A stretch of 63,522 bases of DNA, the filler included, from Thermodesulfobacteriota bacterium (GTDB taxonomy: Bacteria > DASVDK01), in NCBI GenBank assembly GCA_036381125.1. It is 4 parts of 4 records of this genome, joined end to end, with 100 filler letters (N's around TTAATTAATTAA, not from the genome) between each part and the next. Parts side by side here need not be neighbours in the genome. Positions count along the whole stretch, not along the records: positions 46,438 to 61,414 come from DASVDK010000232.1; 3 more parts are not named here. One strand, 5' to 3'. The notes under the pieces were generated by a model. The model worked only from the letters and a program-made list of their open reading frames with translations. It did no database searches and was not told the DNA's origin. This document shows positions 17,431 through 61,514 of this stretch, piece after piece; the stretch's first letter is position 1; every line of letters begins with the position of its first letter. Made by a program: the position numbers and the translations under genes.

Positions 17431-17726
17431 CTCCCCCCTCCCAGTCGCGCTTGCCCTTGTCCAGGCGCCTGCCACGGCAGCGCCGCTTGTCGACAAGACA
17501 GGCGGCCCATGGGTCAGGCGGCGTGCGCAGCGACTGTATACCAGTGTTAGGAAGCGGAGGAATACGGGATCGATCACATCGACGACGCCTCGCTCGGTCC
17601 GCGGTGTCTCGCGCATGCACAGGAGGCGGCAGCATTGCTACGATGCGCTCCGTTGGCTCGCATGCGGCTCGTGGTGACGGCGTCAGGGTCACCGGAAGGG
17701 CCCCGGGAGTCCGGGAGGAGGGATCG

Positions 17727-29398: not shown

Positions 29399-29498
29399 NN
29401 NNNNNNNNNNNNNNNNNNNNNNNNNNNNNNNNNNNNNNNNNNTTAATTAATTAANNNNNNNNNNNNNNNNNNNNNNNNNNNNNNNNNNNNNNNNNNNN
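29399..29498. other. Artificial contig spacer
   Basis: N-run with TTAATTAATTAA (stops in all six frames). Confidence 0.97.
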
Positions 29499-38215: not shown

Positions 38216-38315
38216 CGTCGGGCGCGGCGCGGCACGGCCGATTCGCCGCCGGCCGGTGACCACCACGGCTCGAGGACGCGGGGCCGACGCCCCGCGTCAG
38301 AGCGAGGCAAGGGAC

Positions 38316-41710: not shown

Positions 41711-41715
41711 CGCCC

Positions 41716-42993: not shown

Positions 42994-42997
42994 GCCG

Positions 42998-45900: not shown

Positions 45901-46337
45901 GCTCGAGGAGGGGAGGCCGCTCACCGTCACGCACCCCGAGGCGACCCGGTACTTCATGACGATCCCCGAGGCCGTGCAGCTCATCCTGCAGGCGGCGCTC
46001 CTCCCCGAGATCCGGGGGCGGATCGCCATGCTCGAGATGGGCGAGCCGGTGCGGATCGTCGACCTGGCCAGGAGGATCCTCCGCCTCGCCGGCCGCGGAG
46101 GGCGGGGCGACGAGGGGATCGAGTTCACGGGGCTTCGGCCCGGCGAGAAGCTCCACGAGGAACTCGTCGCGCCGGACGAGAAGACCGCGCCGACCGCGAT
46201 CCCGAAGGTGCAACTGATCGTCACGCCGGCCGGGCAGGGGAGCGAGCTGCGCCGGCAACTCGCCACCCTGTCGCACCTCGTCGACGAGGGATCGGACGCC
46301 GATCTCGTCGCGGCCCTCAAGCGGATCTTCCCGGGCA
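42998..46337 (+). CDS. Fusion of an O-antigen ligase/Wzy_C family domain and a CapD/PglF-type UDP-sugar 4,6-dehydratase; 3' end runs into the gap
   Basis: N-half FGPFVNRAHFAG, GSRGG, GTGLASF, HGESDWVQ; C-half ITGAAGSIGSEL, HAAAYKHVP, STDKAV, MGATKR, RFGNVLGS; single open frame. Confidence 0.85.
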
Positions 46338-46437
46338 NNNNNNNNNNNNNNNNNNNNNNNNNNNNNNNNNNNNNNNNNNNNTTAATTAATTAANNNNNNN
46401 NNNNNNNNNNNNNNNNNNNNNNNNNNNNNNNNNNNNN
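46338..46437. other. Artificial contig spacer
   Basis: N-run with TTAATTAATTAA. Confidence 0.97.
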
Positions 46438-48601
46438 CCACGCGGTAGTCGAACTGCGCGCCCGCCCGTCGCTCCAGCTCGGCGAGCGCCTCCGCCTGCG
46501 ACATCGCCGGGCGGTAGGGACGCGGCGAGGTCATGGCGTCGAACGCGTCGGCGACCGACAGGATGCGGGTCGCGAGCGGGATCTGCGCGCCCGCGAGCCC
46601 CTCGGGATAGCCGCTGCCGTCGAGCCGCTCGTGATGCGAGAGGACCATCGCGCGCTCGACCTCGAAGCCGGGGACCGCCTCGAGGATCTTGGCGCCGAGC
46701 GTCGCGTGCGTGCGCGCGAGACGGGTCTCGGCTTCGGTGAGCGGGCCCGGCTTGCGGAAGAGATCGCCGGTGATCGCGAGGCGGCCGATGTCGTGCAGCC
46801 GCCCCGCCACCCGCAGCCGCGCGAGCTGCGGTTCCGGCACGAGCAGCTCGCGGCCGAGGGCGCACGCGAGGTCGGCCACGCGCCGGCCGTGGCCGTGGAA
46901 GCCGCTGCGCGCGTCCACCATGACGGCGATGGCCGAGGCCGCCAGCTCGAGGAAGCGCCGCTGCTCGCGCTCGAGACCGAGCCCCTCGCGCACGAAGTCC
47001 GCGATCGGCTCGGCCAGCGCGAGGACCACGTCGAGGTCGGCCTCCGTGAAGGCTTCGCGGCGGCGCGGGTTGGCCACGTGCAGCGTGCCGATGACCTCGT
47101 CGCGGGCGACGAGCGGCACCGCGAGGCAGGAGCGGCTCGTGTAGTCACCCGAGCCGTTGGGCCGGAAGCCCGGCATCGTGGCTGCCAGCGCCGCGATGTC
47201 CGGCGTGGCGAAGGCGCGCCGCGTGGCGGCGACGACCCCGGCCACGCCCTCGCCGAGCCGCACGCGAAACGTGGCCAGCACGGCCGGCGAGGCGCTCTGG
47301 CCGTGGGCGCTCTTGACGAGCAGCTCTCTGCGCGTCCGGTCGAGCACCATGAGCGAGGCCCGGCCGCCGCCGACGGCCTCCATCGCCATGCGGGAGAGGA
47401 GGTCGAGGAGCTGCCCGACGGTCGCGAAGGAGTTCACCGCCCGCATGACGAGGTCGTAGTCGATCGTGCCGGAGGCGTCGGCTGCGGGCGCCTCCTCGGG
47501 CGGAAGCTCGGCCGCCTGGACCACGCGGTTGCGGCCGAGCGCCTTCGCCCGGTAGAGCGCCAGGTCGGCCGCGTGCACCAGGTCGGCCCGTTCGCGCGCG
47601 TCGACCGGCGCCGTGGCGGTGCCGATCGAGATCGTGAGCCGCACGTCCGGCTCCGGCCCCGACCCGGGGAACCGGTGCCGCTCGACCGCCTCCGTGACGC
47701 GGCGTGCGAAGGTGAGGGCGCCGACCTCGTCGGTCTCCGGGAGGATCACCGCGAACTCCTCCCCCCCGAAGCGGCACGCGGTGTCGCCGCGCCGCGCCGC
47801 GTGCCCGAGGATGCGGGCCACGTCGCGCAGCGCCTGGTCGCCCGCGGCGTGCCCGTAGCGGTCGTTGTAGGCCTTGAAGTGGTCCACGTCCGCCATGAGG
47901 AGCGACAGCGGGCGCCTGGCGCGCAACCCCCGCGTCAGCTCGCGGGCGAGCGTCTCGTCGAAGTACCGCCGGTTGTAGAGGCCGGTGAGCTGATCGGTGG
48001 TGGCCAGGCGAGCGAGGAGGGCGCGGTCCTGGTGGCGGTGGAGGATCGCCTCGGCCTGGACCGCGAGGATCATGAGGAACCGGGCGTCCTCCGTCGAGAA
48101 GGCGCCGCGCCGCCGGGCGAACAGCTCGAGCGCGCCGCGCGGCTGCCCCGCCGCGAAGAGCGGGACCGAGAGGGCGGAGCCGGCCTCGAGGGGACCGAGG
48201 ACGAGCGCCGCCTCCGGATCGTCCGGCGACGGCAGCAGCATCGGCTGGCCGAGCCCGAGCGTCCACTCGGTGAGGCGCGTGCCCTCCGCGAGGGCGTCGT
48301 CGAGCGGCGCCTCGACGCCGCGCGTGACCGCGAGCGTGAGCCGCTCCCGGTCCTCGTCCCAGAGGTAGAGGAGCGCTCGGTCGAAGTGCACCATCTCGGC
48401 GGCCTGGTCGACGAGCACGTTCAGCGCCACGCCGAGGTCCATCTGCAGCGCGCCGAGGAGGCTCGCCCGAAGGAGCACGTTCACGTGTGCCACCCGCCGC
48501 CTGATGGCCTGGGGCGTCAGCTCCGGCGCCAGCGCCTGGGCGAAACGCCGCCCGGCGTCCAGACGGCCAGCCGCGCTGCGCGGGCGCACGTCCATGGACA
48601 T
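46438..48601 (-). CDS. GAF-GGDEF-GAF-HD-GYP c-di-GMP enzyme; C-terminus truncated by the gap
   Basis: DQLTGLYNRR; DVDHFKAYND; RRGD..RFGGEEF; LHDIG; HHERLDGSGYPEG. Confidence 0.92.
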
Positions 48602-48617
48602 GACGCACCGCATGCCG

Positions 48618-48633
48618 AGCAAGCGGTGTGCCA
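48618..48633 (-). promoter_or_regulatory. sigma54 (-24/-12) promoter
   Basis: Minus strand reads TGGCAC-ACCGC-TTGCT, matching the consensus. Confidence 0.7.
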
Positions 48634-48665
48634 GAGGCGGACCGGTCGTACCTGCCGCCGCTCGA

Positions 48666-48694
48666 TTGACACGTGCCGAGCAGGCACCAATAAT
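48666..48694 (+). promoter_or_regulatory. sigma70-type promoter for the epimerase/dehydrogenase genes
   Basis: TTGACA-17-AATAAT. Confidence 0.6.
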
Positions 48695-48778
48695 CCCCGA
48701 AGGCGCTTGCTCGGGGCGCCGGTTCGAGTGCGTGGAATCGGGTGCGCCGGCCGGAGCGCCGCGGAGAGGGAGGCACCG

Positions 48779-49735
48779 ATGGCGAAGACCCTCGTGACCG
48801 GCGGCGCCGGCTTCATCGGGTCGCATCTGGTCGAGGCGCTGCTCGCGGCCGGGCACGAGGTCGTCGTCGTCGACAACCTGTCCACCGGCGCCCTCGACAA
48901 CCTCCGGTCCGTCCGGGGCGCCATCCGGTTCGTCGAGGGCGACGTGCGGGACCAGGCCGCGCTGCGCCCCCTCCTCGCCGGCGTGTCGTGGGTCTTCCAC
49001 CTGGCCGCTCTCGCCTCGGTCCCCCGCTCGGTCGCCGACCCGTTCTCGAGCCACGACCACAACGCCACCGGGACGCTCGCCGCGCTCCTCGCCGCGCGCG
49101 ACGCGGGCGTCTCGCGATTCGTCTACTCGGCCTCCTCGTCGGCCTACGGCGACACCGAGACGCTGCCCAAGGTGGAGACGATGCCGGCCCGCCCGAGGTC
49201 GCCCTACGCCATCGGCAAGTACGTGGGCGAGCTGTACGCCGAGACGTTCCATCGCCTCTACGGGCTCGAGACGGTCTCGCTCCGATACTTCAACATCTTC
49301 GGCCCGCGTCAGACGCCCGACTCGCCGTACGCGGCCGTCATCCCGAAGTTCGTGACGGCGCTGCTCCGCGGCGAGTCGCCCGTCGTCCACGGCGACGGCC
49401 GGCAGACGCGAGACTTCACGTTCGTCGCCAACGCGGTCGCCGCCAACCTGAGAGCGGCCGAGGCGCCGGCCGACCGGGTCGCGGGGCGGGTCTTCAACGT
49501 CGGCTGCGGGGAGCGGACGAGCCTCCTCGATCTCCTCGACGAGCTCGCCTCGCTCACCGGGTCGCGCGTCGCGCCGCGCCACGTCGAGCCGCGTGCCGGC
49601 GACGTGCGCGACTCGCAGGCCGACATCGAGGCCGCGCGCCGCGCCCTCGGCTACGAGCCGTCGGTCGGCCTCCGGGACGGCCTCGCCCGCACGGTCGAGT
49701 GGTACCGGGAGACCGGAAGGGCGGCGACCCGATGA
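48779..49735 (+). CDS. NAD-dependent UDP-HexNAc(A) 4-epimerase (WbpP/TviC-like)
   Basis: TGGAGFIGSHL; SSSAYG; YAIGK; LRYFNIFGPRQ; GDGRQTRDF. Confidence 0.9.
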   Translation: MAKTLVTGGAGFIGSHLVEALLAAGHEVVVVDNLSTGALDNLRSVRGAIRFVEGDVRDQAALRPLLAGVSWVFHLAALASVPRSVADPFSSHDHNATGTLAALLAARDAGVSRFVYSASSSAYGDTETLPKVETMPARPRSPYAIGKYVGELYAETFHRLYGLETVSLRYFNIFGPRQTPDSPYAAVIPKFVTALLRGESPVVHGDGRQTRDFTFVANAVAANLRAAEAPADRVAGRVFNVGCGERTSLLDLLDELASLTGSRVAPRHVEPRAGDVRDSQADIEAARRALGYEPSVGLRDGLARTVEWYRETGRAATR

Positions 49736-51036
49736 GCGGAGGGCTCGTCGCCGGCCGCCGCATCGCCGTGGTGGGCCTCGGCTACGTCGGCCTGCCGCTG
49801 GCGGTCGCGTTCGGGCGCAAGGGGCGAGTCGTCGGCTTCGACATCGCGGCCGAGAAGGTGGCCCGGCTCGCCCGGGGCGAGGACCCGACCGGCGCCGTCA
49901 CCCCCGACGACCTCGCCCGCGCGGAGGTCGAGTACACGAGCGACCCGCGCCGGCTCGCCGAGGCGGACTTCGTCGTCGTGGCGGTCCCCACGCCGGTCGA
50001 CGAGACCAAGCGGCCCGACCTGCGGGCGCTCGCGTCCGCCTCGCGCCTCGTGGGGGAGCAGCTTCGCCGGGGCGCCATCGTCGTCTACGAGTCCACCGTC
50101 TATCCCGGCTGCACCCGTGAGGTCTGCGTCCCGCTCCTCGAGAGGGCCTCGGGCCTCACCGCGGGGCGCGACTTCGCCTACGGCTACTCGCCCGAGCGGA
50201 TCAACCCGGGCGACACCGAGCACACCCTCGAGCGGATCGTGAAGGTCGTCTCGGCGAGCGACCCGGCCACGCTCGACGTCGTGGCCGACGTGTACGGGCA
50301 GGTGGTCGCGGCCGGCGTCTTCCGGGCGGCCAGCGTCGAGACCGCCGAGGCGGCCAAGGTCATCGAGAACACGCAGCGCGACCTCAACATCGCGCTCATG
50401 AACGAGCTCTCGCTGATCTTCCACCGGATGGGGCTCGACACGCGCGAGGTGCTGGCCGCCGCCGGCACCAAGTGGAACTTCCTGCGCTTCGTGCCCGGCC
50501 TGGTCGGCGGCCACTGCATCGGCGTCGACCCCTACTACCTGACGCACAAGGCGGAGGCGCTGGGGCATCACCCGGAGGTCATCCTCGCCGGGCGGCGGAT
50601 CAACGACGCGATGGGCCAGTACGTCGCCGAGCAGACCGTGAAGACGCTGATCCGGGCCGGCAAGGGGGTGCGCGGCTGCCGGGTGCTCGTGCTCGGGCTG
50701 ACGTTCAAGGAGAACGTCCCCGACCTGCGCAACTCCCGCGTCGTGGACGTCGTGCGGGAGCTGGAGGACTACGGCGTCGAGTGCCGGCTCCACGACCCGA
50801 TCGCCGACCCGCACGAGATCGCCGAGGAGTACCGCGGCCGGACCGTCGTGGCCGATCCCGCGGCGGCCGTCCCGGTGGACGGCGTGGTGCTTGCCGTCGC
50901 GCACGCCGCCTACGCGCCGCTCAGGCTCGAGACGCTCGCAGGGTGGTGCCGGGGCACGCCCGTCCTGATCGACGTGAAGGGGCGGTTCCCGAGGGCCGCG
51001 GCCGAGGCGGCCGGCATCGCGTACTTCGCGCTCTGA
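49732..51036 (+). CDS. UDP-HexNAc 6-dehydrogenase (WbpO/TviB-like)
   Basis: GLGYVGLP; ESTVYPG; SPERINPGD; GGHCIGVDPYY; FKENVPDLRNS. Confidence 0.92.
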   Translation: MSGGLVAGRRIAVVGLGYVGLPLAVAFGRKGRVVGFDIAAEKVARLARGEDPTGAVTPDDLARAEVEYTSDPRRLAEADFVVVAVPTPVDETKRPDLRALASASRLVGEQLRRGAIVVYESTVYPGCTREVCVPLLERASGLTAGRDFAYGYSPERINPGDTEHTLERIVKVVSASDPATLDVVADVYGQVVAAGVFRAASVETAEAAKVIENTQRDLNIALMNELSLIFHRMGLDTREVLAAAGTKWNFLRFVPGLVGGHCIGVDPYYLTHKAEALGHHPEVILAGRRINDAMGQYVAEQTVKTLIRAGKGVRGCRVLVLGLTFKENVPDLRNSRVVDVVRELEDYGVECRLHDPIADPHEIAEEYRGRTVVADPAAAVPVDGVVLAVAHAAYAPLRLETLAGWCRGTPVLIDVKGRFPRAAAEAAGIAYFAL

Positions 51037-51059
51037 GCCGCGGCAGGACGGGGCCGCGC

Positions 51060-51089
51060 TTGACACGGCCTCCGCCTGGCCGGTACCAT
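51060..51089 (+). promoter_or_regulatory. tRNA promoter
   Basis: TTGACA-18-TACCAT. Confidence 0.6.
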
Positions 51090-51118
51090 ACCGGCACCAT
51101 CCACCCACGGACCGATCC

Positions 51119-51194
51119 GGGCGCGTAACTCAGCGGTTAGAGTGCCATCCTCACACGGTGGAAGTCGCTGGTTCAAGTCCAGCCGCGCCCACCA
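51119..51194 (+). tRNA. tRNA-Val(CAC)
   Basis: Acceptor stem GGGCGCG/CGCGCCC; anticodon arm CCATC-CT CAC AC-GGTGG; GGTTCAAGTCC; encoded CCA. Confidence 0.95.
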
Positions 51195-51207
51195 ACTCCT
51201 TTCCTCG

Positions 51208-51236
51208 TCCATGGGGTCAGGTCTTTCCATTTTCCA
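51208..51236 (+). repeat. Solo copy of the RAYT-associated 25-bp unit
   Basis: TCCATGGGGTCAGGTCTTTCCATTTTCCA is identical to 31507-31535. Confidence 0.9.
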
Positions 51237-51322
51237 GGCAGGCGAACGGTGCGGACCGACGCCGGTCGTTTTCCGCGGGCCGCAGCCGACCCGCCCCGCG
51301 CCTCACCCTGTCGGGATCCGTC

Positions 51323-51985
51323 CTAGAAGCTGATTCGCACGCCGAGCCGCGCGTTGCTGTCGACGGCCGGCACCTGCACGAAGAGGATCGCCCGCGAGAC
51401 CACGTTGGCCCACCGGCCGTCGAGCGTCAGGAAGGAGGCGGTGTGGAGCGCCGCGATCGAGCCGAAGTAGGCGAGCACGGCGCCGTCGCTTGGCCGCTCG
51501 CCGAGCAGGCGGTTCGTCTCTCTGAAATCGGACGACCCGTTGATCTCGAGCGTCTGGGCCATGTCGAGGAACAGCGCCGACTGCGCGGCCAGGAAGAGCC
51601 CGACGTCGCGCTCGGCCGGCACCACCACCTCGGCCCAGCTATCCCCCCGTCCCGGCCGGGAGGCGAGGGGGACCTCCGTCTCGATGTACTCGCGCGGCGT
51701 GGGGACGCGATCGGAGAGCGCGACGGACTGCCGCGCCTCCCGGGCCCCGGCCGCGTCCAGGCTGCCCGATCGGAAGGTCGGCGTTCCGGTCTCCGCCGGC
51801 GCCGCCGGCGGCTCGGCCGCGCGGAAGCGGAGGGTGTACGCGGGGTCCCAGCGCGCATCGGCCAGGAGCCTGACCCCGGAGGCCGAGCGGCCGGCGCCCC
51901 CCTCGGCGTGCGCCGGGGTCGCGAGACCCAAGCTCACCGTCACCACCGCCGCGACCAGGCCGAAGGTGCGCGCACGCCAGGCCAT
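51323..51985 (-). CDS. Secreted/envelope hypothetical protein
   Basis: RBS GGAGGAG; signal peptide ..TPAHA; DMAQTLEI..ETNRLLGERPS motif; ends in LGVRISF. Confidence 0.7.
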   Translation of the reverse strand: MAWRARTFGLVAAVVTVSLGLATPAHAEGGAGRSASGVRLLADARWDPAYTLRFRAAEPPAAPAETGTPTFRSGSLDAAGAREARQSVALSDRVPTPREYIETEVPLASRPGRGDSWAEVVVPAERDVGLFLAAQSALFLDMAQTLEINGSSDFRETNRLLGERPSDGAVLAYFGSIAALHTASFLTLDGRWANVVSRAILFVQVPAVDSNARLGVRISF

Positions 51986-52142
51986 GACTCCTCCAGGGTC
52001 CCAGGGCCCGAACCGACCAGGCCCTTTCTCGATGTCATATGACCCATACGACATTTCCGACCGCTTGTGAAGCAAGAAGTGATGCCGGTCGCTCGATCAC
52101 CGTGCATACGATCACAACGCCACCCGTCGGGCAAGGTATGCG

Positions 52143-52172
52143 TTGACATCGGGCAGCAAGCTCTCCTAGAGT
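52143..52172 (+). promoter_or_regulatory. sigma70-type promoter
   Basis: TTGACA-18-TAGAGT upstream of 52264. Confidence 0.55.
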
Positions 52173-52263
52173 GCCGAAAAGCGGCGCATCGGAAGACGTC
52201 GGTGCCGCATTCGGTTCCTGGTATCCATGGCCTTCCCATCCAGACTCGGGCGCGGAGGCGGGA

Positions 52264-53571
52264 ATGAGGCTTCGCCGGGAGCGAAGACGGCGGCAGGAGC
52301 GTTCTGGTCCGGGTGCCGGCGTCGGGCGGCTCAAGATCAGCGGGGTGCTGGCGTCGGAGCCGGCGGGCAAGAGCCTGAAGGACTGCGAGCACGGGGAATG
52401 CTTCGTCACGTATGATGCCGGCAGCGAGGACCAGGAGGTGCGGCGGCGCTTCGGCGTGACGGGGCTGCGCCGCATGAAGCTCCTGCGCATCGCCACCGAG
52501 GCCCACGAGCAGGGCATCGACCTCACGCAGGAGGACCTCGCCTACCGCATCCTCAACTGCGGCCTCAAGACCATCAAGCGCGACATCGCGTACTTCCGCA
52601 AACAGGGCCTCTTCCTCCCCACGCGCGGCCAGCAGAAGGACATCGGGCCGGTCCTCACCCACCAGGTCGAGGCGGTGCGCATGGCCATCGAGGGCAAGCC
52701 CACCTGGGAGATTGCCAGGCGCATCCTGCATCCGCCGCGCGCCATCGAGCGCTACCTCGCCACCTTCGCCCGCGTCGTCGCCCTTGCCGACGGCGGGGCC
52801 GAGCGCCGCGCCGCGGCGGCGAGCCTCGGCCTCTCCGAGCGGCTCTTCTCCGACTTCCTCGCGCTGCGCGACCGCTACGCGGACACCGAGCACGCCGGCC
52901 GGATGGCCGAGATCCTGGCGAAGCGACCCGAGCCCGAGCCGGCGCGCGAGGAGACCGGCCGCGGGCGGCTGCCGATCTACGACGAGCAGGTCAAGGTGCT
53001 ACGCCGCGAGTTCTTCCAGTTCCTGCTCGAGCACGAGATCCGCCGCGCGAGACGCTACGGCCAGCCGCTCACGTTCCTGCTCATCGAGCTCGACGGCGGC
53101 AGTCGGGGGCGGCCGCTGCCGAGCAGCGTCCTCAACCGCGCCCTGGCGGGACAGCTCCGCTCGACACTGCGCAAGACGGACGTCGTCGGCCGCCTCGGCG
53201 CCTCGCGCTTCGGCGTCATCATGACCGCCGACACGCAGGCGGCCTACCGGGTCGCCGAGCGGATTCGCGGCCTGATGGCCGGGCTCGACGGCGGGGGCGA
53301 CCCCGCCTCGCCCGAGTCGGGCATGCGGGCGACCGTGAGCGTCGGCGGCGCGTCGCTGGCCGCCGGCGCGCTCGACTCGCCCGAGGCGCTCACCGAGATG
53401 GCCGCGACCATGCTGTCGCAGGCGCGCGAGGGTGGGGGCAATCGCACCCGCCTCCACGCCTTCCCGGACGTGGCGGCCCCGGCCGCGGCCGAGCCGGGAA
53501 CCCCGCCCGCGGAGGTCGCCGAGGTCCCAACGGAGGAGGAGGCCCCGGGCGGCGCACGCCGGAGCGCGTGA
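52264..53571 (+). CDS. DUF1670-like double-HTH fused to a degenerate GGDEF domain (paralog 1)
   Basis: EPAGKSL..EAHEQGIDLTQEDLA..TIKRDI..PTRGQQKDIGP..TH..EIARRILH..IERY; C-terminal RKTDVVGRLGASRF, TVSVG, AREGGGNR. Confidence 0.8.
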   Translation: MRLRRERRRRQERSGPGAGVGRLKISGVLASEPAGKSLKDCEHGECFVTYDAGSEDQEVRRRFGVTGLRRMKLLRIATEAHEQGIDLTQEDLAYRILNCGLKTIKRDIAYFRKQGLFLPTRGQQKDIGPVLTHQVEAVRMAIEGKPTWEIARRILHPPRAIERYLATFARVVALADGGAERRAAAASLGLSERLFSDFLALRDRYADTEHAGRMAEILAKRPEPEPAREETGRGRLPIYDEQVKVLRREFFQFLLEHEIRRARRYGQPLTFLLIELDGGSRGRPLPSSVLNRALAGQLRSTLRKTDVVGRLGASRFGVIMTADTQAAYRVAERIRGLMAGLDGGGDPASPESGMRATVSVGGASLAAGALDSPEALTEMAATMLSQAREGGGNRTRLHAFPDVAAPAAAEPGTPPAEVAEVPTEEEAPGGARRSA

Positions 53572-53697
53572 CGCTCGCCCGCGCGGGTCGCCGGGCCTCG
53601 CGCATTCGGGCGCACGGACCCGGATGGTGGCCGAGTTCGTCGCGCCGGTGCGCCACGTCACCGACACGCGGTCGCGTCGCGATCTACCCTCCGCCGA

Positions 53698-53994
53698 ATG
53701 TTCCGCGACCTGTGTGAAGCCGAAGTGTTCTTCTCCGCGGACTACCCGCCGCTTCGGCAGCTCGTGCACGATCTGTCGCCCGAGCGCCTTCGCCTGCGGG
53801 CCGCGATGATCGTCCCCGCCGGCGTCCGCGTGCAGGTGCGGCTGCGGCTGCCCGGCATCCGCCGGCCGGTCTCCCTCGTCGGGTCGGTCACCCCGATGCC
53901 CGAATCCGGGCAGTGCGAGGTCGCCTTCACCGACGTCTCGGCGTCCGCGCGGCTCGCGATCGCGCGCTACGCGGAGCTGGATCAGGAGAGCTGA
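53698..53994 (+). CDS. PilZ-like protein (degenerate or N-terminally frameshifted)
   Basis: VHDLSPERLRL..GVRVQVRLRLPG..VSLVGSV..VAFTDVS..IARY resembles the PilZ fold pattern. Confidence 0.55.
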   Translation: MFRDLCEAEVFFSADYPPLRQLVHDLSPERLRLRAAMIVPAGVRVQVRLRLPGIRRPVSLVGSVTPMPESGQCEVAFTDVSASARLAIARYAELDQES

Positions 53995-54033
53995 GGTCGG
54001 CCGCCCCGGGCTGCGGGCGGCCGCGGGAGAGGC

Positions 54034-54068
54034 GGCGCACGGACGACAACCGTCCGGGCGCCTTTTTT
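54034..54068 (+). terminator. Intrinsic terminator
   Basis: GGCGCACGGACG-ACAAC-CGTCCGGGCGCC-TTTTTT. Confidence 0.8.
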
Positions 54069-54168
54069 GTGTTCAGGAATCACATTCTCTCACGTAGAAT
54101 GGAACACGTGTGGGCGAGCAGGCCTGCTCGGGCCTTGCCGCCTCAAGGAGACTCGTCAGAGGGATCGC

Positions 54169-55419
54169 GTGACCGTACGGAGCCCCGCCGAACCGCGAGT
54201 CGGCCAGCTCAAGATTTCCGGCGTTCTGTCATCGGAGCCTGCCGGCAAGCCGCTACGCGACTGTGCGCGCGGTGAGTGTTTCGTCACGTACGACGCGGGG
54301 GAGGAGGACGAGGAGACCCGCCGGCGCCACGGCGTGATCGGACTGCGCCGCTTCAAGCTCCTGCGGATCGCCACCGAGGCGCACGACCAGGGCATCGACC
54401 TCACGCAGGAGGGCCTCGCCAAGATCCTCGGCGCGGGCGTCAAGACCGTCAAGCGCGACATCGCGTACTTCCGCAAGCACGGCATCTTCCTGCCGACGCG
54501 CGGCCAGCAGAAGGACCTCGGGCCCATCGTCCCCCACCAGGTCGAGGCGGTCCGCCTCACCCTCGACGGTCTCGACGACTGGGAGGTGTCGCGCCGCATC
54601 CTCCACTCCCCGGGCATGGTCGGCCGCATCATCGGCAGCTTCGCCCGCGTCGTCGCGTTCCTGCGCGAAGGGCGCGACCCCGAGGACATCGCCTATCTCG
54701 TCGACGTGCCGCTCAGGCTCGTCGACGAGTACCGCCGCGTCGCCGCCGAGGCCGCCGCCGATCCGGCGCGCCAGGCCCGTCTCGAGGCGCTCGTGGCGCG
54801 GCATGCCCCGGGGCCCGCCGACGAGGCGGCCGCGGGCACGGGAGGGGAGAACGGCGCGCAGCCGCGCGAGGGACAGGGTCGCAGGCGCCCACCGCTCTTC
54901 GACGAGCAGGTCAAGGTGCTCCGCCGCGAGGTCTTCGAGTTCCTCTTCGACCTCGAGGTCCGCAAGGCCACCCGCTACAAGCTGCCGGTTGCCGTCGTCG
55001 CCATCGAGGCCGCGGCCGGCGACGGACCGACCCAGGCGGGGCGGACCCTGGCCTCCATGACCCTCGCCGAGCACCTGCGCGAGCAGGTCCGCGCGACCGA
55101 CGTGATCGGCCGCGCCGCGGTCTCGCGGTTCTACATCCTCCTTCCGGTCGCCGACGTGCCGGCCGCGCAGGGCTTCGTCCAGCGCCTCCTGCGCGACCGC
55201 AACATTCCGCCCCAGACCCGGATCGTGGCCGGCGCCGCCTGCTTCCCGGCGCACGGCTCGCGCGCCTCGGAGCTCCTGCGCGAGAGCGAGCGCGCGCTCG
55301 GGACTGCGCGGGCGACCGGGAGGGCCTTCGCGTTCGCGTCCGATGCGTTCCCCGGGTCGAACCGGGCGGTGGAGCCCTCCGCTGGAGGCGGCACGAATCT
55401 CACCAGCCGGGCAATGTAG
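54169..55419 (+). CDS. DUF1670-like double-HTH fused to a degenerate GGDEF domain (paralog 2)
   Basis: N-domain closely similar to 52264; DEQVKVLRRE; RATDVIGRAAVSRF; GAACFPAHG; start codon uncertain. Confidence 0.8.
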   Translation: MTVRSPAEPRVGQLKISGVLSSEPAGKPLRDCARGECFVTYDAGEEDEETRRRHGVIGLRRFKLLRIATEAHDQGIDLTQEGLAKILGAGVKTVKRDIAYFRKHGIFLPTRGQQKDLGPIVPHQVEAVRLTLDGLDDWEVSRRILHSPGMVGRIIGSFARVVAFLREGRDPEDIAYLVDVPLRLVDEYRRVAAEAAADPARQARLEALVARHAPGPADEAAAGTGGENGAQPREGQGRRRPPLFDEQVKVLRREVFEFLFDLEVRKATRYKLPVAVVAIEAAAGDGPTQAGRTLASMTLAEHLREQVRATDVIGRAAVSRFYILLPVADVPAAQGFVQRLLRDRNIPPQTRIVAGAACFPAHGSRASELLRESERALGTARATGRAFAFASDAFPGSNRAVEPSAGGGTNLTSRAM

Positions 55420-55629
55420 GGGACGCTGATCGGCCGACATCGGCCTGGACCGATCGGCCGTCACCGAGGCGTGCGACCGCGTCGACGGCACCTCACGTCG
55501 TGAGCCCGCGGCGCGGGGATTCGCCGTACAGGTGCGCCCGGATCATGTACGGGTCGCCTGATACTATGCGAATCAGAGAAAGCCGGCCTGGATCGGGCCA
55601 CTGGTGCCGGCAAGTAGCGGAGGTCCGGA

Positions 55630-56607
55630 ATGCCGCGGGCGACGGGTGAAGCGATGGTGGCGAGCGCCGTCGCGGGCGCGCGCGAGGACCTCGCGGCTGC
55701 CGATCTCTACCGTCGGCTGCTCGCGCGGTGCAGGGCAACGCTCACGACCCTGCCCGACAAGCCCGAGGAAACCCCCGAGACCACGCTGCGCGCGCTGTGG
55801 CACCTGGCCGCGGGCGTCCCGTTGTCCGCGCACGCTGCCGCGAGCGCGACGCCGATGCCGCTCGACAGCGGACAGGTCGCGCGCCTCGAGAGGCTCCTCG
55901 AGGCCCGCCTGCGCGGCACGCCGCTGGCCCATCTGACGGGGCGGCAGCGCTTCTTCGGTCTCGAACTCCTGGCCGGTCCCGAGGCGCTGATCCCGAGGGC
56001 AGAGACCGAGCTGCTCGTCGCGGTCGCCCTCGAGCGCGTCCGCGCGGCCGTCGCCGCACGCGGCACCGCACTGGTGGTGGACGTCTGCACCGGGAGCGGG
56101 AACGTGGCGCTCGCGCTCGCGGCCAATGCACCGCGAGCGACCGTCTACGCCGCCGATCTCTCCAGCGCGGCCGTCGACCTGGCGCGCCGCAATGCCGTCC
56201 GGCTCGGGCTCCACGAGCGCGTGGAGGTCCGGGTCGGCGACCTCCTGACGCCGTTCGAGGAGCCCGGCTTCCTCGGCCAGGTCGACGTGCTGACCTGCAA
56301 CCCCCCGTACATCTCCGAAGCCAGGGTCGACCGGATGCCGCCCGAGATCTCGAGGCACGAGCCGCGCATGGCCTTCGACGGCGGCCCCTTCGGCGTCAGC
56401 ATCCTCCAGCGACTCACGCGCTGCGCCCGCCGGTTCCTGCGACCCGGCGGGTGGCTCGTCTTCGAGACCGGCGCCGGACAGGGAGGCGCGATGGTGCGTC
56501 GCCTGGCCGCGAACCCGGACTTCGCGGACGTCCGCTCCGTCGCGGGCCCCGACGGGACGGTGCGCGTCGTGCTCGGGCAGACCACGCCGGCCATCGGCAT
56601 CGCCTAG
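55630..56607 (+). CDS. HemK/PrmC-family SAM methyltransferase
   Basis: PLAHLTG..FFGL; LIPRAETE; DVCTGSG; NPPY; AFDGG. Confidence 0.85.
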   Translation: MPRATGEAMVASAVAGAREDLAAADLYRRLLARCRATLTTLPDKPEETPETTLRALWHLAAGVPLSAHAAASATPMPLDSGQVARLERLLEARLRGTPLAHLTGRQRFFGLELLAGPEALIPRAETELLVAVALERVRAAVAARGTALVVDVCTGSGNVALALAANAPRATVYAADLSSAAVDLARRNAVRLGLHERVEVRVGDLLTPFEEPGFLGQVDVLTCNPPYISEARVDRMPPEISRHEPRMAFDGGPFGVSILQRLTRCARRFLRPGGWLVFETGAGQGGAMVRRLAANPDFADVRSVAGPDGTVRVVLGQTTPAIGIA

Positions 56608-56801
56608 CCCGAGCCATCGGCAATCAGGCTTCCGGGCCCAGCGGGCAGGTGCCTTCGGCCCGGCCGCGGCCCTGCCGCGACCTCCAGCCATCCTGGCGAC
56701 GGTCCCCTTAATCTCCCGGAACCACACGCTTCTTCCGACGGTTGCACCGTACAGCCTCCAGGCAGGCCAGGAGGCAAGCGGGAGTCGGCTTGCCGATACG
56801 G

Positions 56802-56886
56802 GCCTCAATTGACCTGGGGCTTTTCGCTTGACTCCTCACCAACAGCCTGTAACATCAGTCACAGATTCAAGTGGGTCAGTTGACCC
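56802..56886 (+). promoter_or_regulatory. EPS operon promoter region
   Basis: TTGACT-16-TAACAT (56828-56855); CRP-like TGTAA-N6-TCACA (56848-56863); perfect GGGTCA-GT-TGACCC (56873-56886). Confidence 0.55.
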
Positions 56887-56927
56887 CGAAACCAATCCAG
56901 TGACCCTGATCACCTAACGAGGGCCTC

Positions 56928-57533
56928 TTGCAGCGTTCAGCTCGGCTGTTCGTCGGGGTGGTGCTCCTGGCAGCGGCCACCGGATGCGCATCGCCGACGC
57001 CTCCACGCCTCGTGGGCGGCACCGCCGCCGACGAGGCGACGCCCACGTCGGCCACCTACACCATCGGCCCCGAGGACGTGCTGATGGTGTCGGTCTGGAA
57101 GGAGGAAGGGCTCACGCGGCAGGTCCGCGTGCGGCCCGACGGGTTCATCTCGTTCCCGCTCGTGGGCGAGGTCCGCGCGGCCGGCCTGACCGCGGCACAG
57201 CTCCAGGCCGATCTGACGCGACGGCTGCAGGCGTACGTCACGGCGCCCGCGGTCAGCGTGATCGTCGAGGAGATCAACAGCTACAAGGTCTTCGTCCTCG
57301 GCGAGGTCGAGCGGCCCGGCCTCGTCCCGGCTCGATCGCAGATCACGGTGCTCCAGGCGTTGTCACTGGCCGGTGGCCTCAAGCCGTTCGCGGACGGCGA
57401 CCGGATGGTGCTGGTGCGGGAGGTCGACGGCAAGACCGTCAGGGTCCGCCTGAACTACCGGGACCTCGTGCTCGGCCGCAACGGTGCCGTGAACCTCGTC
57501 CTCGAGTCCGGCGACACCCTTGTGGTTCCGTAG
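56928..57533 (+). CDS. Short Wza-like polysaccharide export lipoprotein
   Basis: Lipobox ATGC; YTIGPEDVL..VRPDGFISFPLVGEV; LESGDTLVVP. Confidence 0.9.
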   Translation: MQRSARLFVGVVLLAAATGCASPTPPRLVGGTAADEATPTSATYTIGPEDVLMVSVWKEEGLTRQVRVRPDGFISFPLVGEVRAAGLTAAQLQADLTRRLQAYVTAPAVSVIVEEINSYKVFVLGEVERPGLVPARSQITVLQALSLAGGLKPFADGDRMVLVREVDGKTVRVRLNYRDLVLGRNGAVNLVLESGDTLVVP

Positions 57534-58728
57534 GGGTTGGGTGGAAGCCGCGGCCGTGCTCACCATCGTGTGCGGTGCGCCGCAGGCGGCCCGAGGGGCC
57601 GTGTATTCCCTGGAGCCGGAGCTGTCGGTGACCGAGACGTACGACGACAACGTGAACCGCAGCGACGAGGATCCCGAGCACGACTTCGTCACGAGCGTTC
57701 GTGCGGGGATGAGCGCGACGGCGACGACTCCCCGGTTCCGGAGTGCCGCGAGCTACGCGCTCGGGACGGAGTTCTTCGCCCGGGAGACGGAGGAGGACGG
57801 GCACCTGCAGCACGACGCGTCGCTGTCGGCCCTCTACGACGTGAGCCAGCAGTTCAGCCTGCGCGTGGCCGATACCCTCCGCGTGGCCGACACGTCCGAG
57901 CCCGAGGCCGCACGCGCGGTACCCCTGCCCGAGGGGCAGGTCCCGCCGCCGCCGAGTGCGCAGGCGCCGGGGACCACGTCGACCCGCCGCGTCAGGCAGG
58001 TTGCCAACACCCTCGTCGCCGGCGTCGATTACCGGTACAGCGCGTTCACGACGCTCGGCGCCGAGTACAGCCTGGCGGTCCAGCGGTACGACGCGCCGGA
58101 CTTCACGGATTCCAACACCCACTCCGGGCTCTTCCAGGCAAGCCGCGCGGTCGGGCGAAACGACAGCCTCGGGCTGTCGGCATCGGCCGCCTGGACGGAG
58201 ATTACGAACCGCGCCGGTGACGAGCAGTGGTTCTACGACACGAGAGGGACCTGGCGTCACAGCTTCACGGAGTGGACGGCGCTGAGCACCAGTGTCGGCG
58301 TGGCCTGGACGGATGAGCCGGGCATCGATCCGGGGCTCGTCGGCGACGCGTCGATCACGCACATTTCCGACAGGAACCGGTACCTGGCCGAGTACGAGGG
58401 GTCCTTTCGGGCGAGCAACGAGAGCGGGGAGGCGGTCCGATCCGACCGCGTGGCCGTTAGTCTGGCGCGCGACCTGTCCCCGTACGTGACGGGTGAACTC
58501 GGAGCGGCGGCCGTCAGGAACGAGACGCTCCGGGGCGAACGAGACACGGCGTATAGCTACAGCGTGACTGCTCGGCTTACCGGCCGGATCGCGCGATGGC
58601 TCGATTGGGTCCTGGGGTACACGTTCGAGCGGAACGACGCGGAGGCGCCGCAGAACGACTTCACGAATAACCGGGTCACGGCCGGCGTCACGATCCGCTT
58701 CCCGCCGGCCACGAGCAGGCAGCTCTAG
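57520..58728 (+). CDS. EPS-associated outer-membrane beta-barrel
   Basis: LSVTETYDDNV; alternating beta strands; FTNNRVTAGVTIRF; start codon uncertain. Confidence 0.75.
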   Translation: MWFRRGWVEAAAVLTIVCGAPQAARGAVYSLEPELSVTETYDDNVNRSDEDPEHDFVTSVRAGMSATATTPRFRSAASYALGTEFFARETEEDGHLQHDASLSALYDVSQQFSLRVADTLRVADTSEPEAARAVPLPEGQVPPPPSAQAPGTTSTRRVRQVANTLVAGVDYRYSAFTTLGAEYSLAVQRYDAPDFTDSNTHSGLFQASRAVGRNDSLGLSASAAWTEITNRAGDEQWFYDTRGTWRHSFTEWTALSTSVGVAWTDEPGIDPGLVGDASITHISDRNRYLAEYEGSFRASNESGEAVRSDRVAVSLARDLSPYVTGELGAAAVRNETLRGERDTAYSYSVTARLTGRIARWLDWVLGYTFERNDAEAPQNDFTNNRVTAGVTIRFPPATSRQL

Positions 58729-58740
58729 GAGACCGAGGAC

Positions 58741-60402
58741 ATGGCGCAGACGGTGAGCCCGCTGCCGACGACACCGGCGGACATCCTGCACGTCGTCAGG
58801 CGGCGCAAGTGGCAGATCCTGGTGCCGTTCCTGGTGATCGGCGGCCTCGCGGCGTTCCTCGCCCACGCGCTGCCGTCCGTGTACCGGTCCTCGACGACGA
58901 TCCTCGTCGTCAAGGCGCAGGTCCCCGAGACGTTCGTGCGCAGCACGGTCACGGCGGAGATCGACGACCGGCTCGCGACGATCACGCAGCAGATCCTCTC
59001 GCGGACCCGACTCGAGCGGATCATCAAGCAGTTCGACCTCTACGCCGAGGAGCGGGCCACGCAGCCGATGGACGCCGTCGTCGCCCGGATGCGCCGCGCG
59101 ATCGAGGTCGAGGTGCAGCGGGGGAACAACGCGTTCACGGTGTCCTTCGTCGGCAGCGAACCCCGCCTGGTGCGCGACGTCACGAACGAGCTCGCCGCCG
59201 TGTTCATCGAGGAGAACTCGAAGATCCGCGAGGAGCTTGCCGCCAACACGTCGCAGTTCCTCGACACGCAGCTCGAAGCGCTCAAGCAGACGCTGAACGA
59301 GCAGGAGCGGCAGGTCCGGGAGTTCAAGGAACGCTACATGGGGCAGCTCCCCCAGCAGCAGGAGGCGAACCTGCGGCTCCTCGACCGCCTCCAGAGCCAG
59401 AGCCAGGCCATTGCCGACCGGGCGCGAGCCGCCGAAGAGCGCCGCCTGCTCTTGCAGGCACAACTCGGCGCGACGCCGAAGTTCAACGAGGTGGTCGTGC
59501 GGGTGACGCGCTCGGGGTCCGGCGCCGGCAGGGAGACGACCGTCCTGTCGTCCGCATCCCCGCGAGATACGAACCGGGCGCGACTCGAGGAGGCGCGGGC
59601 CACCCTCCTGCAGCTTCGCACCCGGTACACGGAGGCGCACCCGGACGTCGTGCGTGCGAGGCGGCAGCTCGAGGAGCTGGAGGCGATCGTCGCCGGGGGG
59701 GGCGTGGCCGCCACGGACGCTCCCGGCGAGTCGACCGGCCCCGACGACCACATCGCCGTCGACGAGATCCGACAGGTCCCCAACCCGGTGTACGAGCAGA
59801 TCCAGGCTCAACTGCGGGCTACCGACCGCGAGATCGAGTACCTGCGGGCGAGCCATCGCGACATCCTCGCGAACATCGAGGTCGTGCAGCGGAAGGTCGA
59901 GAGCGTGCCGAAGCTCGAGCAGCAGCTCGCCGACCTCACGCGAGACTACAACAACACCCAGGCGAGCTATCAGGCGCTGCTCTCGAAGAAGCTCGAGGCG
60001 GAGATGGCCGAGGATCTCGAGCGGCGGCAGAAGAGCGAGCAGTTCCGGGTCCTCGACCCGGCCGTCCTGCCGCAGACGCCCTACCGGCCGAATCGGGCGC
60101 AGATCCTCGCTGTCGGGCTCGTTGCGGCGCTCGGAGTCGGCGCCGGCGGCGCGCTCGGCCTCGAGCTGTTGAAGGGCGCCGTCCGGAGCCCCGCCGATCT
60201 GAAGGCGCTCGCCCCTCGGCTCTCCGTGCTCGGCGTGATTCCCACGGTGGAGGACCGGGCCAGGCTTCGCCGGCGCCGCCTGCTGACTGCACTGGGCGTC
60301 GCGCTCTTCCTCGTGGCGTACGGCGCAGGCGCCGCGGCAGCACTCGCGTACAAGGACCGGATCGTCCGACTCCCGGGCGTGCAGATGCTGGTCATGAGGT
60401 AG
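58741..60402 (+). CDS. Polysaccharide chain-length determinant (PCP without fused kinase)
   Basis: YRSSTTILV; QQILSRTRL; YTEAHPDV; FRVLDPAVLPQTPYRPNR. Confidence 0.88.
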   Translation: MAQTVSPLPTTPADILHVVRRRKWQILVPFLVIGGLAAFLAHALPSVYRSSTTILVVKAQVPETFVRSTVTAEIDDRLATITQQILSRTRLERIIKQFDLYAEERATQPMDAVVARMRRAIEVEVQRGNNAFTVSFVGSEPRLVRDVTNELAAVFIEENSKIREELAANTSQFLDTQLEALKQTLNEQERQVREFKERYMGQLPQQQEANLRLLDRLQSQSQAIADRARAAEERRLLLQAQLGATPKFNEVVVRVTRSGSGAGRETTVLSSASPRDTNRARLEEARATLLQLRTRYTEAHPDVVRARRQLEELEAIVAGGGVAATDAPGESTGPDDHIAVDEIRQVPNPVYEQIQAQLRATDREIEYLRASHRDILANIEVVQRKVESVPKLEQQLADLTRDYNNTQASYQALLSKKLEAEMAEDLERRQKSEQFRVLDPAVLPQTPYRPNRAQILAVGLVAALGVGAGGALGLELLKGAVRSPADLKALAPRLSVLGVIPTVEDRARLRRRRLLTALGVALFLVAYGAGAAAALAYKDRIVRLPGVQMLVMR

Positions 60403-60410
60403 CGGGTCGC

Positions 60411-61223
60411 ATGTACGAGAGCTTCTTCGGCTTCACCGCGAAGCCGTTCTCGACCCTCGCCGACCCACGTTTCCTGGTGGAGACGGAAACGCACCGGGAG
60501 GCCCTTGCCGCTCTCCAGTACGGGATACAGGAGCGGAAGGGCTTCATCGTCCTCACCGGGGAGGTGGGCACGGGAAAGACCCTCATGATCCGTGCGCTGC
60601 TCGAGCGGCTCGGACCCGAGGTGGCCACGGCGTACGTGACGAACCCGAGGATGGACCTCGTGGGGTTCTTCACGTGCATGTTCGCCGAGTTCGGCATCCC
60701 GAATCGACCGGCGACCAAGGGCGATTGCCTGGTCGCCCTGAACGGATGGCTCATCGATCAGCTCGTGGAGGGGCGTACGCCGGTGCTGATCGTGGACGAG
60801 GGGCAGAGCCTCAGCCGCGAGATGCTCGAGGAGCTTCGGCTCCTCACGAACCTCGAGACGGCAGAGCACAAGCTCCTGCACCTCGTCCTCGCGGGGCAGC
60901 CCGAGCTGGACACGATCCTCGCCGACCCGGCGTTGCGGCAGTTCGTGCAGCGGATCACCGTGCGGCATCGGCTCCTGCCGCTCTCGAAGGAGGAGACGCG
61001 TCAGTACGTCTCCCTGCGCCTCGCGAGGGTCGGGGCCGACGCTCGCCGGATCTTCACCGACCGCGCGCTCAGGTGGATCTATCGCTATGCGCGAGGGATC
61101 CCGAGGATCACCAACGCGCTCTGCGATTCGGCGCTCATGATCGCCTACAGCGCAGGGCAGCGCGAGGTGACGCACAGGACGGTGAAGGAGGCTGCGCGCA
61201 TGGTCGCGGCCGTCGCAGCTTAG
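60411..61223 (+). CDS. ExeA-like AAA ATPase (XrtA/PEP-CTERM-system type)
   Basis: MYESFFGFTAKPF; GEVGTGKT; IVDEGQ; LAGQPEL; GIPRITNALCD. Confidence 0.88.
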   Translation: MYESFFGFTAKPFSTLADPRFLVETETHREALAALQYGIQERKGFIVLTGEVGTGKTLMIRALLERLGPEVATAYVTNPRMDLVGFFTCMFAEFGIPNRPATKGDCLVALNGWLIDQLVEGRTPVLIVDEGQSLSREMLEELRLLTNLETAEHKLLHLVLAGQPELDTILADPALRQFVQRITVRHRLLPLSKEETRQYVSLRLARVGADARRIFTDRALRWIYRYARGIPRITNALCDSALMIAYSAGQREVTHRTVKEAARMVAAVAA

Positions 61224-61249
61224 GGTTCCAGGGCAGGAGCGAGCGAGAC

Positions 61250-61414
61250 ATGGGCAGGATCTACGACGCGCTGCGCAAGGCCGAGCAGGAGCGGCGCCAG
61301 AGGGGCGGGGCGGCGACCCGCACGGAGCCGGCGCTGCTCCTCGACGAGGAGCTCCCCGGAGGTGGTGCGCGCGTCGAGCCGCTGTTCGGCGACGACGGCG
61401 CGCGCGCGGAGCCG
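61250..61414 (+). CDS. N-terminus of a probable stand-alone tyrosine autokinase, truncated by the gap
   Basis: MGRIYDALRKAEQER; follows PCP and AAA genes. Confidence 0.6.
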
Positions 61415-61514
61415 NNNNNNNNNNNNNNNNNNNNNNNNNNNNNNNNNNNNNNNNNNNNTTAATTAATTAANNNNNNNNNNNNNNNNNNNNNNNNNNNNNN
61501 NNNNNNNNNNNNNN
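61415..61514. other. Artificial contig spacer
   Basis: N-run with TTAATTAATTAA. Confidence 0.97.

Follow-up and report, generated by a model that had tools for sequence, protein, structure and literature searches.

A 63,522-nt stretch of DNA from a Thermodesulfobacteriota bacterium (GCA_036381125.1; the window in what follows) carries two paralogous genes in tandem, each encoding a DUF1670 domain fused to a GGDEF-fold domain in which the catalytic motif is lost and the RxxD motif of the inhibitory site (I-site) is kept. We propose that the two proteins, termed paralog 1 and paralog 2, are one-component regulators in which cyclic diguanylate (c-di-GMP) would bind at the I-site and alter DNA binding; we infer ligand binding, DNA binding and targets alike, and the chances of the proposal appear to us evenly balanced. 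A more far-reaching version, which we put forward tentatively and hold to be somewhat short of an even prospect, is that the fusions form the first family of transcription factors sensing c-di-GMP via the I-site of a PF00990 GGDEF domain, and that they have been duplicated into an obligate pair, possibly a c-di-GMP-linked heterodimer, that controls XrtA-type exopolysaccharide (EPS) export. The window comprises at least four separate contigs, with joins at 29399–29498, 46338–46437 and 61415–61514, each consisting of a pair of 44-N runs 12 bases apart. Both paralogs lie on the contig at 46438–61414 (14,977 b), and arguments from linkage are valid inside this interval only.

Domain architecture and the retained I-site

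The open frames of the paralogs extend over 52171/52264–53571 and 54067/54169–55419 on the plus strand, with an ATG at 52264 taken as the start of paralog 1 and the database start of paralog 2 being a GTG at 54169, which gives a protein of 416 aa. The description of both as fusions of a DUF1670-like region and a GGDEF fold, made in the initial annotation, was confirmed by Pfam, in which both domains scored above their cut-offs (25 bits for DUF1670, PF07900; 23.8 bits for GGDEF, PF00990) in both proteins. For paralog 1 the DUF1670 match reached 128 bits (E = 4.5e-37) and the GGDEF match 47 bits (3.1e-12), while paralog 2 gave 117 bits (8.9e-34) and 30.9 bits (2.8e-07), respectively. The NCBIfam GGDEF model, with a cut-off of 37.4, scored 51.6 for paralog 1 (above) and 25 for paralog 2 (below).

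The stretches spanning the I-site and the former active site (A-site) read RKTDVVGRLGASRF in paralog 1 (53170–53211) and RATDVIGRAAVSRF in paralog 2 (55090–55131). In both, RxxD is followed by three residues, an Arg, one residue and then the position formerly held by GG[DE]EF, and the two stretches line up position by position with RRGDTACRFGGEEF from the contig's own active cyclase. The earlier reading of a destroyed catalytic motif (GASRF and AVSRF) and of an RxxD motif kept at canonical spacing (RKTD and RATD) was thus correct on both counts, the spacing being that of the window's own active cyclase. When aligned to that active GGDEF domain, both paralogs are also without the LTGLxNRR asparagine, and a five-residue deletion in both removes HFKxxND..GH..GD, which we take to be the GTP- and metal-binding segment of cyclases. 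Neither paralog thus possesses the GG[DE]EF motif and GTP/Mg-binding residues that mark an active cyclase, and the GGDEF domain of both is, judged from these motifs, a dead enzyme.

Conservation of these positions was assessed in an alignment of the 24 full-length fusion proteins found, which represent 24 clusters at 90% identity. The pattern R-x-x-D-x-x-G-R-x precedes the old A-site in every member, so that the question of whether RxxD is conserved among homologs, left to be checked by the initial annotation, can be answered in the affirmative (24/24). An intact GG[DE]EF occurs in none (0/24); the pentapeptide in its place exists in 15 variants, of which only position 4 (R) and position 5 (F/Y) are fixed, and the entropy at positions 312–314 of the old A-site amounts to 1.3–1.8 bits. 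By comparison, the invariant columns of the GGDEF domain, 23 out of 164, include R303, D306, G309, R310, R315 and R333. The last of these lines up with the leading Arg of ERIR in 3ign, and likewise in other GGDEF domains, and position 261 is divided equally between Arg and Lys (12 members each). We take the RxxD motif to correspond to R359 and D362 of PleD, R333 to R390 and position 261 to R313 of the secondary site. Free drift of the A-site next to an I-site that never changes is the pattern expected from selection for ligand binding at the I-site, and falls short of proving such binding.

Structural comparison confirmed the GGDEF fold. The full-length AlphaFold2 model of paralog 1 had a mean predicted local distance difference test (pLDDT) value of 70.6, with 84–93 in most GGDEF blocks, and a Foldseek comparison of its GGDEF part with c-di-GMP-bound structures yielded TMt values of 0.81 for 3ign and 0.83 for GcbC (5euh). 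A search of the PDB with the family profile matched 43 sequences, all of them GGDEF domains and all within profile positions 228–396 (best E-value 1.7e-14).

The same data bear on the idea that the dead GGDEF domain serves for dimerisation or docking without any ligand, in a protein that would bind DNA and not sense c-di-GMP directly. We regard this as unlikely, since it leaves unexplained the invariance of R303, D306, R310 and R333 in all 24 members beside an A-site loop that drifts freely; moreover, the PucR-type models PF17853 (GGDEF_2) and PF13556 (HTH_30) matched neither paralog at E ≤ 1. It would, however, agree with the strong erosion of the GGDEF domain in paralog 2, and a protein–protein module would also suit the conserved occurrence of the two paralogs as a pair flanking a small PilZ-like gene, with the PilZ-like protein or the nearby cyclase/HD-GYP enzyme as conceivable docking partners. 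A precedent is offered by MabR, whose GGDEF-like domain is reported to be devoid of A-site and I-site motifs and yet to belong to a helix-turn-helix (HTH) regulator and to its dimer interface (PMC11617747).

A further possibility is that the retained pocket binds another nucleotide, such as guanosine tetra- or pentaphosphate ((p)ppGpp), cyclic GMP–AMP (cGAMP) or another cyclic dinucleotide. The titles of PDB entries 9g85 and 9g86 name PleD with c-di-GMP together with ppGpp or pppGpp, and altered specificity in the GGDEF family is known from Ralstonia RSp0334, whose GGDQF domain is reported to act on 2',3'-cGMP. Against this stand the kept residues themselves, which are those of the canonical c-di-GMP I-site, and the presence of an intact c-di-GMP cyclase/HD-GYP enzyme encoded 2.7 kb away, and we consider a switch of ligand very improbable.

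As an observation in its own right, the closest relatives of the paralogs' GGDEF domain outside DUF1670 proteins (P0038–P0120) are PAS-GGDEF proteins of about 415 aa, the named ones being labelled Gemmatimonas. A motif scan of the 120 listed proteins found GGEAF in 68 and GGESF or GGEGF in a few, all with RxxD, while P0110, a protein of 334 aa, combines ESARF with RxxD. The PAS-GGDEF relatives may be a numerous group that acts as I-site receptors or as atypical cyclases.

The DUF1670 module and the origin of the fusion

The N-domain (residues 1–235) was modelled with AlphaFold2 from 85 DUF1670 sequences (pLDDT 88.9; predicted TM-score 0.80). In the model, a beta-hairpin (22–29 and 43–49) bearing the conserved SEPAGK..C..G.C.VT.D.G.ED is followed by a long helix (54–82), a winged HTH (85–130) with the sequence LTQEDLA...KTIKRDIAYFRKQG, and two more three-helix units (133–176 and 181–219). 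The linker PTRGQQKDIGP..H contains R121, the sole invariant residue of the family, as well as the near-invariant G122, G128 and H133. The two HTHs previously assigned to this region are therefore to be replaced by one winged HTH and two further helical units that are HTH-like. The linker between the two domains of the fusion (residues 221–236, 16 residues) holds a single invariant column, is 23% identical between the paralog types and is 13–23 residues longer in proteins of the paralog 2 type.

A profile search of the PDB revealed no whole-domain relative of DUF1670, all matches falling in the GGDEF part, while sub-domain matches were obtained with an exhaustive structure aligner. Residues 58–130 aligned with the winged helices of NiaR, LexA, Mga, DeoR-type and Z-alpha proteins (Z 5.2–5.8), and residues 131–220 with TrpR (Z 6.2) and with phage Mu C, Mor, resolvase HTH and sigma region 4 (Z 5–5.8). 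When nine relatives were searched with Pfam, HTH_11 was matched in their DUF1670 regions at up to 2.4e-10, its 40.6 bits exceeding the cut-off of 25, and DeoR, HTH_24, MarR, HTH_5, Crp and HTH_23 matched inside the same regions at sub-threshold to threshold level. From the model and these family matches, it is a reasonable inference that the DUF1670 module binds DNA.

The mode of binding could nevertheless differ from that of a specific EPS regulator: c-di-GMP may be bound at the I-site while DUF1670 associates with the nucleoid or binds DNA or RNA non-specifically in some other way, or the protein may regulate targets unrelated to the EPS genes nearby. The lack of a characterised DUF1670 member in the full-text literature search, the lack of a whole-domain match in the PDB, the existence of multi-copy tandem forms, and the methyltransferase gene and 320-b gap that separate paralog 2 from the export genes are all in line with this, and Myxococcus CdbA provides a precedent for a c-di-GMP-binding nucleoid protein (PMC10519070). 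However, the matches of the winged-HTH and HTH sub-domains are to specific regulators. In addition, searches for a mobile origin of DUF1670 gave no plasmid match and no viral-contig relative, and the stand-alone proteins matched neither phage families (PHROGs, 0/3) nor defence families (PADLOC, 0/5 proteins). Altogether, we judge this alternative to be quite unlikely.

The fusion is a rare form of DUF1670. A phmmer search with the N-domain against 1.84 billion representatives returned 854 clusters at E ≤ 0.001, 358 at 1e-10 and 30 at 1e-30, and the best 150 of the 854 clusters contained two GGDEF fusions, P0008 and P0011, one per paralog type. The other clusters among the matches listed were mostly stand-alone proteins of 260–300 aa in which DUF1670 starts near residue 55–65, together with some tandem two- or three-copy proteins of 500–950 aa and a few with unassigned N-terminal extensions. 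The notion of DUF1670 as a stand-alone family accordingly applies to most of its members but has to accommodate the tandem forms, among which P0133, P0139, P0145 and P0148 measure about 930–950 aa, and P0155, P0164 and others about 500–570 aa. The existence of such tandem copies hints that the domain acts as a multimer on DNA. No larger fused forms were found among proteins of 763–2175 aa, which is weak evidence of their absence. DUF1670 clusters in the Atlas are distributed over Chloroflexota, Nitrospirota, Planctomycetota, Ignavibacteriota, Methanobacteriota, Thermoplasmatota and others, and a control search gave a DUF1670 match in Methanosarcina acetivorans.

The stand-alone proteins (260–310 aa) have the beta-hairpin, the winged HTH, the linker TRG..KD.G..H and the HTH core in common with the fusions. 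They differ in having no GGDEF domain, in occurring across many bacterial and archaeal phyla, and in possessing a conserved N-terminal region of about 55–60 aa that is lost from the fusions. With fusions making up two of the best 150 of 854 clusters and lacking this N-terminal extension, the hope that they would give DUF1670 a function proved too broad, and what carries over to the rest of the family does not go further than probable DNA binding.

A maximum-likelihood tree was calculated from the DUF1670 parts of the 24 fusions, trimmed before the GGDEF domain, and of 26 stand-alone proteins, with a midpoint root only. The fusions formed one clade (support 100/100) divided into two paralog-type clades (98/98 and 100/99), and three stand-alone proteins (P0025–27) were placed as their sister (97/84); the nearest stand-alones are 57–61% identical to the fusions. 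Because the fusions form one clade split by paralog type, the tree shows one fusion event followed by one duplication.

Both paralog types were found on contigs of equal size in three cases: 14,977 b in the window, 16,589 b for P0270 and P0016, and 66,849 b for P0008 and P0024. These equal sizes indicate, without proving, that the two paralogs are kept together as a pair, and as both are retained, they may work as a heterodimer or as two regulators with divided tasks. A scan of genome contigs for the locus returned only L001, a 4.4-kb contig from a relative at 91% identity, and one unrelated GGDEF locus, and a metagenome scan returned one stand-alone DUF1670 locus of 2.1 kb. In L001, the order of dehydrogenase, 250-aa open reading frame (ORF), paralog 1, small ORF and start of paralog 2 is kept, which at about 90% DNA identity says little.

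Genomic setting of the paralogs

The features of the contig are compiled in Table 1. The G+C content of the window is about 72%, and its close relatives (proteins 87–92% identical) are metagenome-assembled genomes (MAGs) labelled by NCBI as 'Thermodesulfobacteriota bacterium'. The surroundings reported in the initial annotation, comprising a PilZ-like ORF, a GGEEF/HD-GYP enzyme and EPS export genes, were indeed all located within 46438–61414. About 320 aa at the N-terminus of the GAF-GGDEF-GAF-HD-GYP open frame are probably non-coding.

Table 1. Features of the contig carrying the DUF1670–GGDEF paralogs, in window coordinates
Feature	Position	Strand	Remarks
GAF-GGDEF-GAF-HD-GYP enzyme	46438–49582	-	RRGD, GGEEF and HHE..GYP motifs intact; gene cut by contig end
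Nucleotide-sugar dehydrogenase, TviB-like	49759–51036	+	Family match
tRNA-Val	51119–51194	+	
250-aa ORF	51323–52075	-	No Pfam or NCBIfam family match
Sigma-70-like promoter match TTGACA-18-TAGAGT, upstream of paralog 1	52143–52172	+	Consensus match only
Paralog 1 (P0001, 435 aa), DUF1670 and degenerate GGDEF	52264–53571	+	Pfam, both domains above cut-off
DUF1670 domain, paralog 1	52321–52923	+	Residues ~20–220
GGDEF-fold domain, paralog 1, predicted catalytically dead	52972–53463	+	Residues ~237–400
I-site RKTD (R303, D306), paralog 1	53170–53181	+	R and D invariant in 24/24 homologs
Former A-site GASRF, paralog 1	53197–53211	+	In place of GG[DE]EF
Small ORF, weakly PilZ-like	53698–53994	+	98 aa; 89 aa from database start
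GC-rich hairpin followed by T-run, 3' of small ORF	54034–54062	+	Inverted-repeat inspection; absent from terminator-scan output
Paralog 2 (P0015, 416 aa), DUF1670 and more eroded GGDEF	54169–55419	+	Pfam, both domains above cut-off
I-site RATD, paralog 2	55090–55101	+	
Former A-site AVSRF, paralog 2	55117–55131	+	
PrmC/HemK-type methyltransferase	55630–56607	+	TIGR03534, 204.9 bits (cut-off 199.1)
Promoter-like site TTGACT-16-TAACAT, upstream of export gene	56828–56855	+	Sigma-70-like match
Inverted repeat GGGTCA-GT-TGACCC, upstream of export gene, candidate operator	56873–56886	+	
Four XrtA/PEP-CTERM-type EPS genes	56928–61223	+	NCBIfam models
EPS export protein	Within 56928–61223	+	TIGR03027, 148 bits, below cut-off (180)
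EPS outer-membrane protein	Within 56928–61223	+	TIGR03016, 75 bits, below cut-off (90.85)
EPS chain-length determinant	Within 56928–61223	+	TIGR03007, 315 bits, above cut-off (278.85)
EPS system ATPase	60399–61223	+	TIGR03015, 273 bits, below cut-off (324.5)

The small ORF between the paralogs exists as described, but its designation as a PilZ-like gene is only weakly borne out, with a Pfam PilZ score of 13.9 bits (E = 0.069) below the cut-off of 22.5 and a TIGR02266 score of 28.9 bits (9.6e-7) below the cut-off of 68.7. The RxxxR motif is missing, and DLSPER is found where PilZ has DxSxxG. An Atlas feature search gave a score of 0.95, with PilZ sets accounting for 27 of the 30 matches. Homologs of the ORF form seven clusters, 78–99% identical, on contigs of 14,977, 39,684, 6,689 and 16,589 b, and homolog contigs are equal in size to contigs carrying fusion proteins.

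Three sigma-70-like sites were observed in 51000–57000, where 0.2 would be expected. The hairpin and T-run downstream of the small ORF are likely a terminator, in which case paralog 2 would have its own promoter. Upstream of the export genes, the inverted repeat lies 18 b after the promoter-like -10 element, and allowing for up to two mismatches on both strands, GGGTCA-GT-TGACCC gave four matches at two sites (0.55 expected). Inverted repeats in the intergenic regions were otherwise unremarkable, apart from the terminator-like hairpin, and a tRNA was the only Rfam match on the contig, which thus carries no c-di-GMP riboswitch.

The 250-aa ORF is divergently oriented from paralog 1, has a hydrophobic N-terminal segment and a Phe as its last residue, and is present in L001; it is possible that it encodes a secreted or outer-membrane protein and is a target of the paralogs. 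Other contigs of the window hold further genes of note. A second polysaccharide locus (38256–46337) codes for an export protein resembling Wza and for a chain-length/tyrosine-kinase protein of Wzc type that scores 292 bits with TIGR01005 (below cut-off); in the same locus, matches to Wzy_C, CoA_binding_3 and Polysacc_synt_2 are united in one open frame of 1118 aa. A gene for SelA (L-seryl-tRNA(Sec) selenium transferase; Pfam, 493 bits) at 61867–63297 on the minus strand implies that the organism probably uses selenocysteine, and a further minus-strand gene (15214–17616) specifies a protein of 800 aa that matches the tannase-like family DUF6351 over the full length (838 bits).

Proposed mechanism and relation to known c-di-GMP receptors

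In cyclases, the I-site takes up an intercalated c-di-GMP dimer that is able to bridge two domains, as in PleD and WspR. In the mechanism that we propose for the paralogs, the N-terminal DUF1670 module, whose winged HTH and two three-helix units are connected by the invariant TRG..K..G..H linker, would bind DNA, and the C-terminal GGDEF domain would make no c-di-GMP but retain the product-inhibition pocket formed by RxxD and the downstream Arg. Binding of c-di-GMP in this pocket, probably as an intercalated dimer, may cross-link or re-orient two GGDEF domains in a homo- or heterodimer of the paralogs, and this would shift the seating of the DNA-binding modules on their operators. The input would probably come from the GAF-GGDEF-GAF-HD-GYP enzyme next to the paralogs and from other cyclases. 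The output would probably be exerted on the promoters of the paralogs themselves and on the nearby XrtA/PEP-CTERM-type EPS export genes, which are separated from paralog 2 by the PrmC-like methyltransferase gene and the 320-b gap.

Several results weigh against this mechanism. Retention of RxxD may have structural causes, and PucR/MabR regulators show that a transcription factor can make use of a GGDEF-like fold that has no I-site. The GGDEF domain is the less conserved part between the paralog types, with 38% identity compared to 59% in the DUF1670 domain. In paralog 2 the GGDEF match is weak (30.9 bits), partial and under the NCBIfam cut-off. As to DNA binding, a Foldseek search of the PDB with the N-domain model retrieved zero chains at E ≤ 0.001, and the structural matches obtained with the exhaustive aligner all have Z < 8 and may reflect common helical arrangements. 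As to the targets, linkage to EPS genes was seen in the window contig only, L001 showing just the upstream part of the locus; the XrtA exosortase was not found in the incomplete genome of a close relative (G001); and no operator motif was shared among six intergenic regions beyond short GC-rich coincidences.

The closest functional parallels to the proposed regulators are the GGDEF-domain receptors PopA (2 µM), PelD (0.5–1.9 µM) and SgmT, which are given in the table of a review (PMC10519070). These proteins resemble the paralogs in having lost cyclase activity and kept RxxD, which in their case is the site of c-di-GMP reception, and PelD and SgmT control extracellular polysaccharide or matrix. 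They differ in their output, which is a membrane synthase complex for PelD, an adaptor function in proteolysis for PopA and a histidine kinase acting via the separate DNA-binding regulator DigR for SgmT. None is known to carry its own DNA-binding domain, while the paralogs have a putative multi-HTH module fused to theirs. In architecture, the nearest published case is the PucR family, whose members likewise unite a GGDEF-like fold and an HTH in one protein. In the crystal structure of Mycobacterium tuberculosis MabR, a GGDEF-like domain adjoins an HTH; its A-site reads HGTWL and its I-site RHGR, and the HTH is C-terminal and of another family (PMC11617747). The paralogs, in contrast, match PF00990, keep RxxD and have their GGDEF domain placed after an N-terminal DUF1670.

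Sensing of c-di-GMP and binding of DNA are combined in one protein in BldD, FleQ, VpsT, Clp, BrlR, MrkH and LtmA, and BldD, in which the ligand itself dimerises the protein through RxD/RxxD motifs, resembles the bridging proposed for the paralogs. The c-di-GMP-responsive transcription factors described in the available parts of three reviews (PMC12564702, PMC10333796 and PMC10519070) do not include any with a GGDEF domain as sensor. Full-text searches, which leave out subscription journals and supplementary files, returned no papers on 'DUF1670' and none on HTH-GGDEF fusions, and among the papers listed by broader searches of the full-text literature there was no description of an I-site GGDEF domain fused to a DNA-binding domain. 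The claim of a new class needs to be narrowed, since GGDEF-like folds with an HTH and I-site receptors are both already known, to that of a new combination of known modules.

The reach of the finding is narrow, as the fusions amount to a small family of 24 clusters (90% identity) that is known only from uncultured MAGs labelled Thermodesulfobacteriota by NCBI. If the proposal is true, it would add a new sensor–output combination to the c-di-GMP effectors, in which a GGDEF I-site is wired directly to DNA binding, and XrtA/PEP-CTERM-type EPS loci would gain a candidate regulator. It would also offer a first experimental handle on the DNA-binding fold of DUF1670, a family with hundreds of uncharacterised bacterial and archaeal members. 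Mainly, the paralogs would then represent a clean example of the re-use of a feedback site, in which the pocket of a cyclase has been recycled as a receptor.

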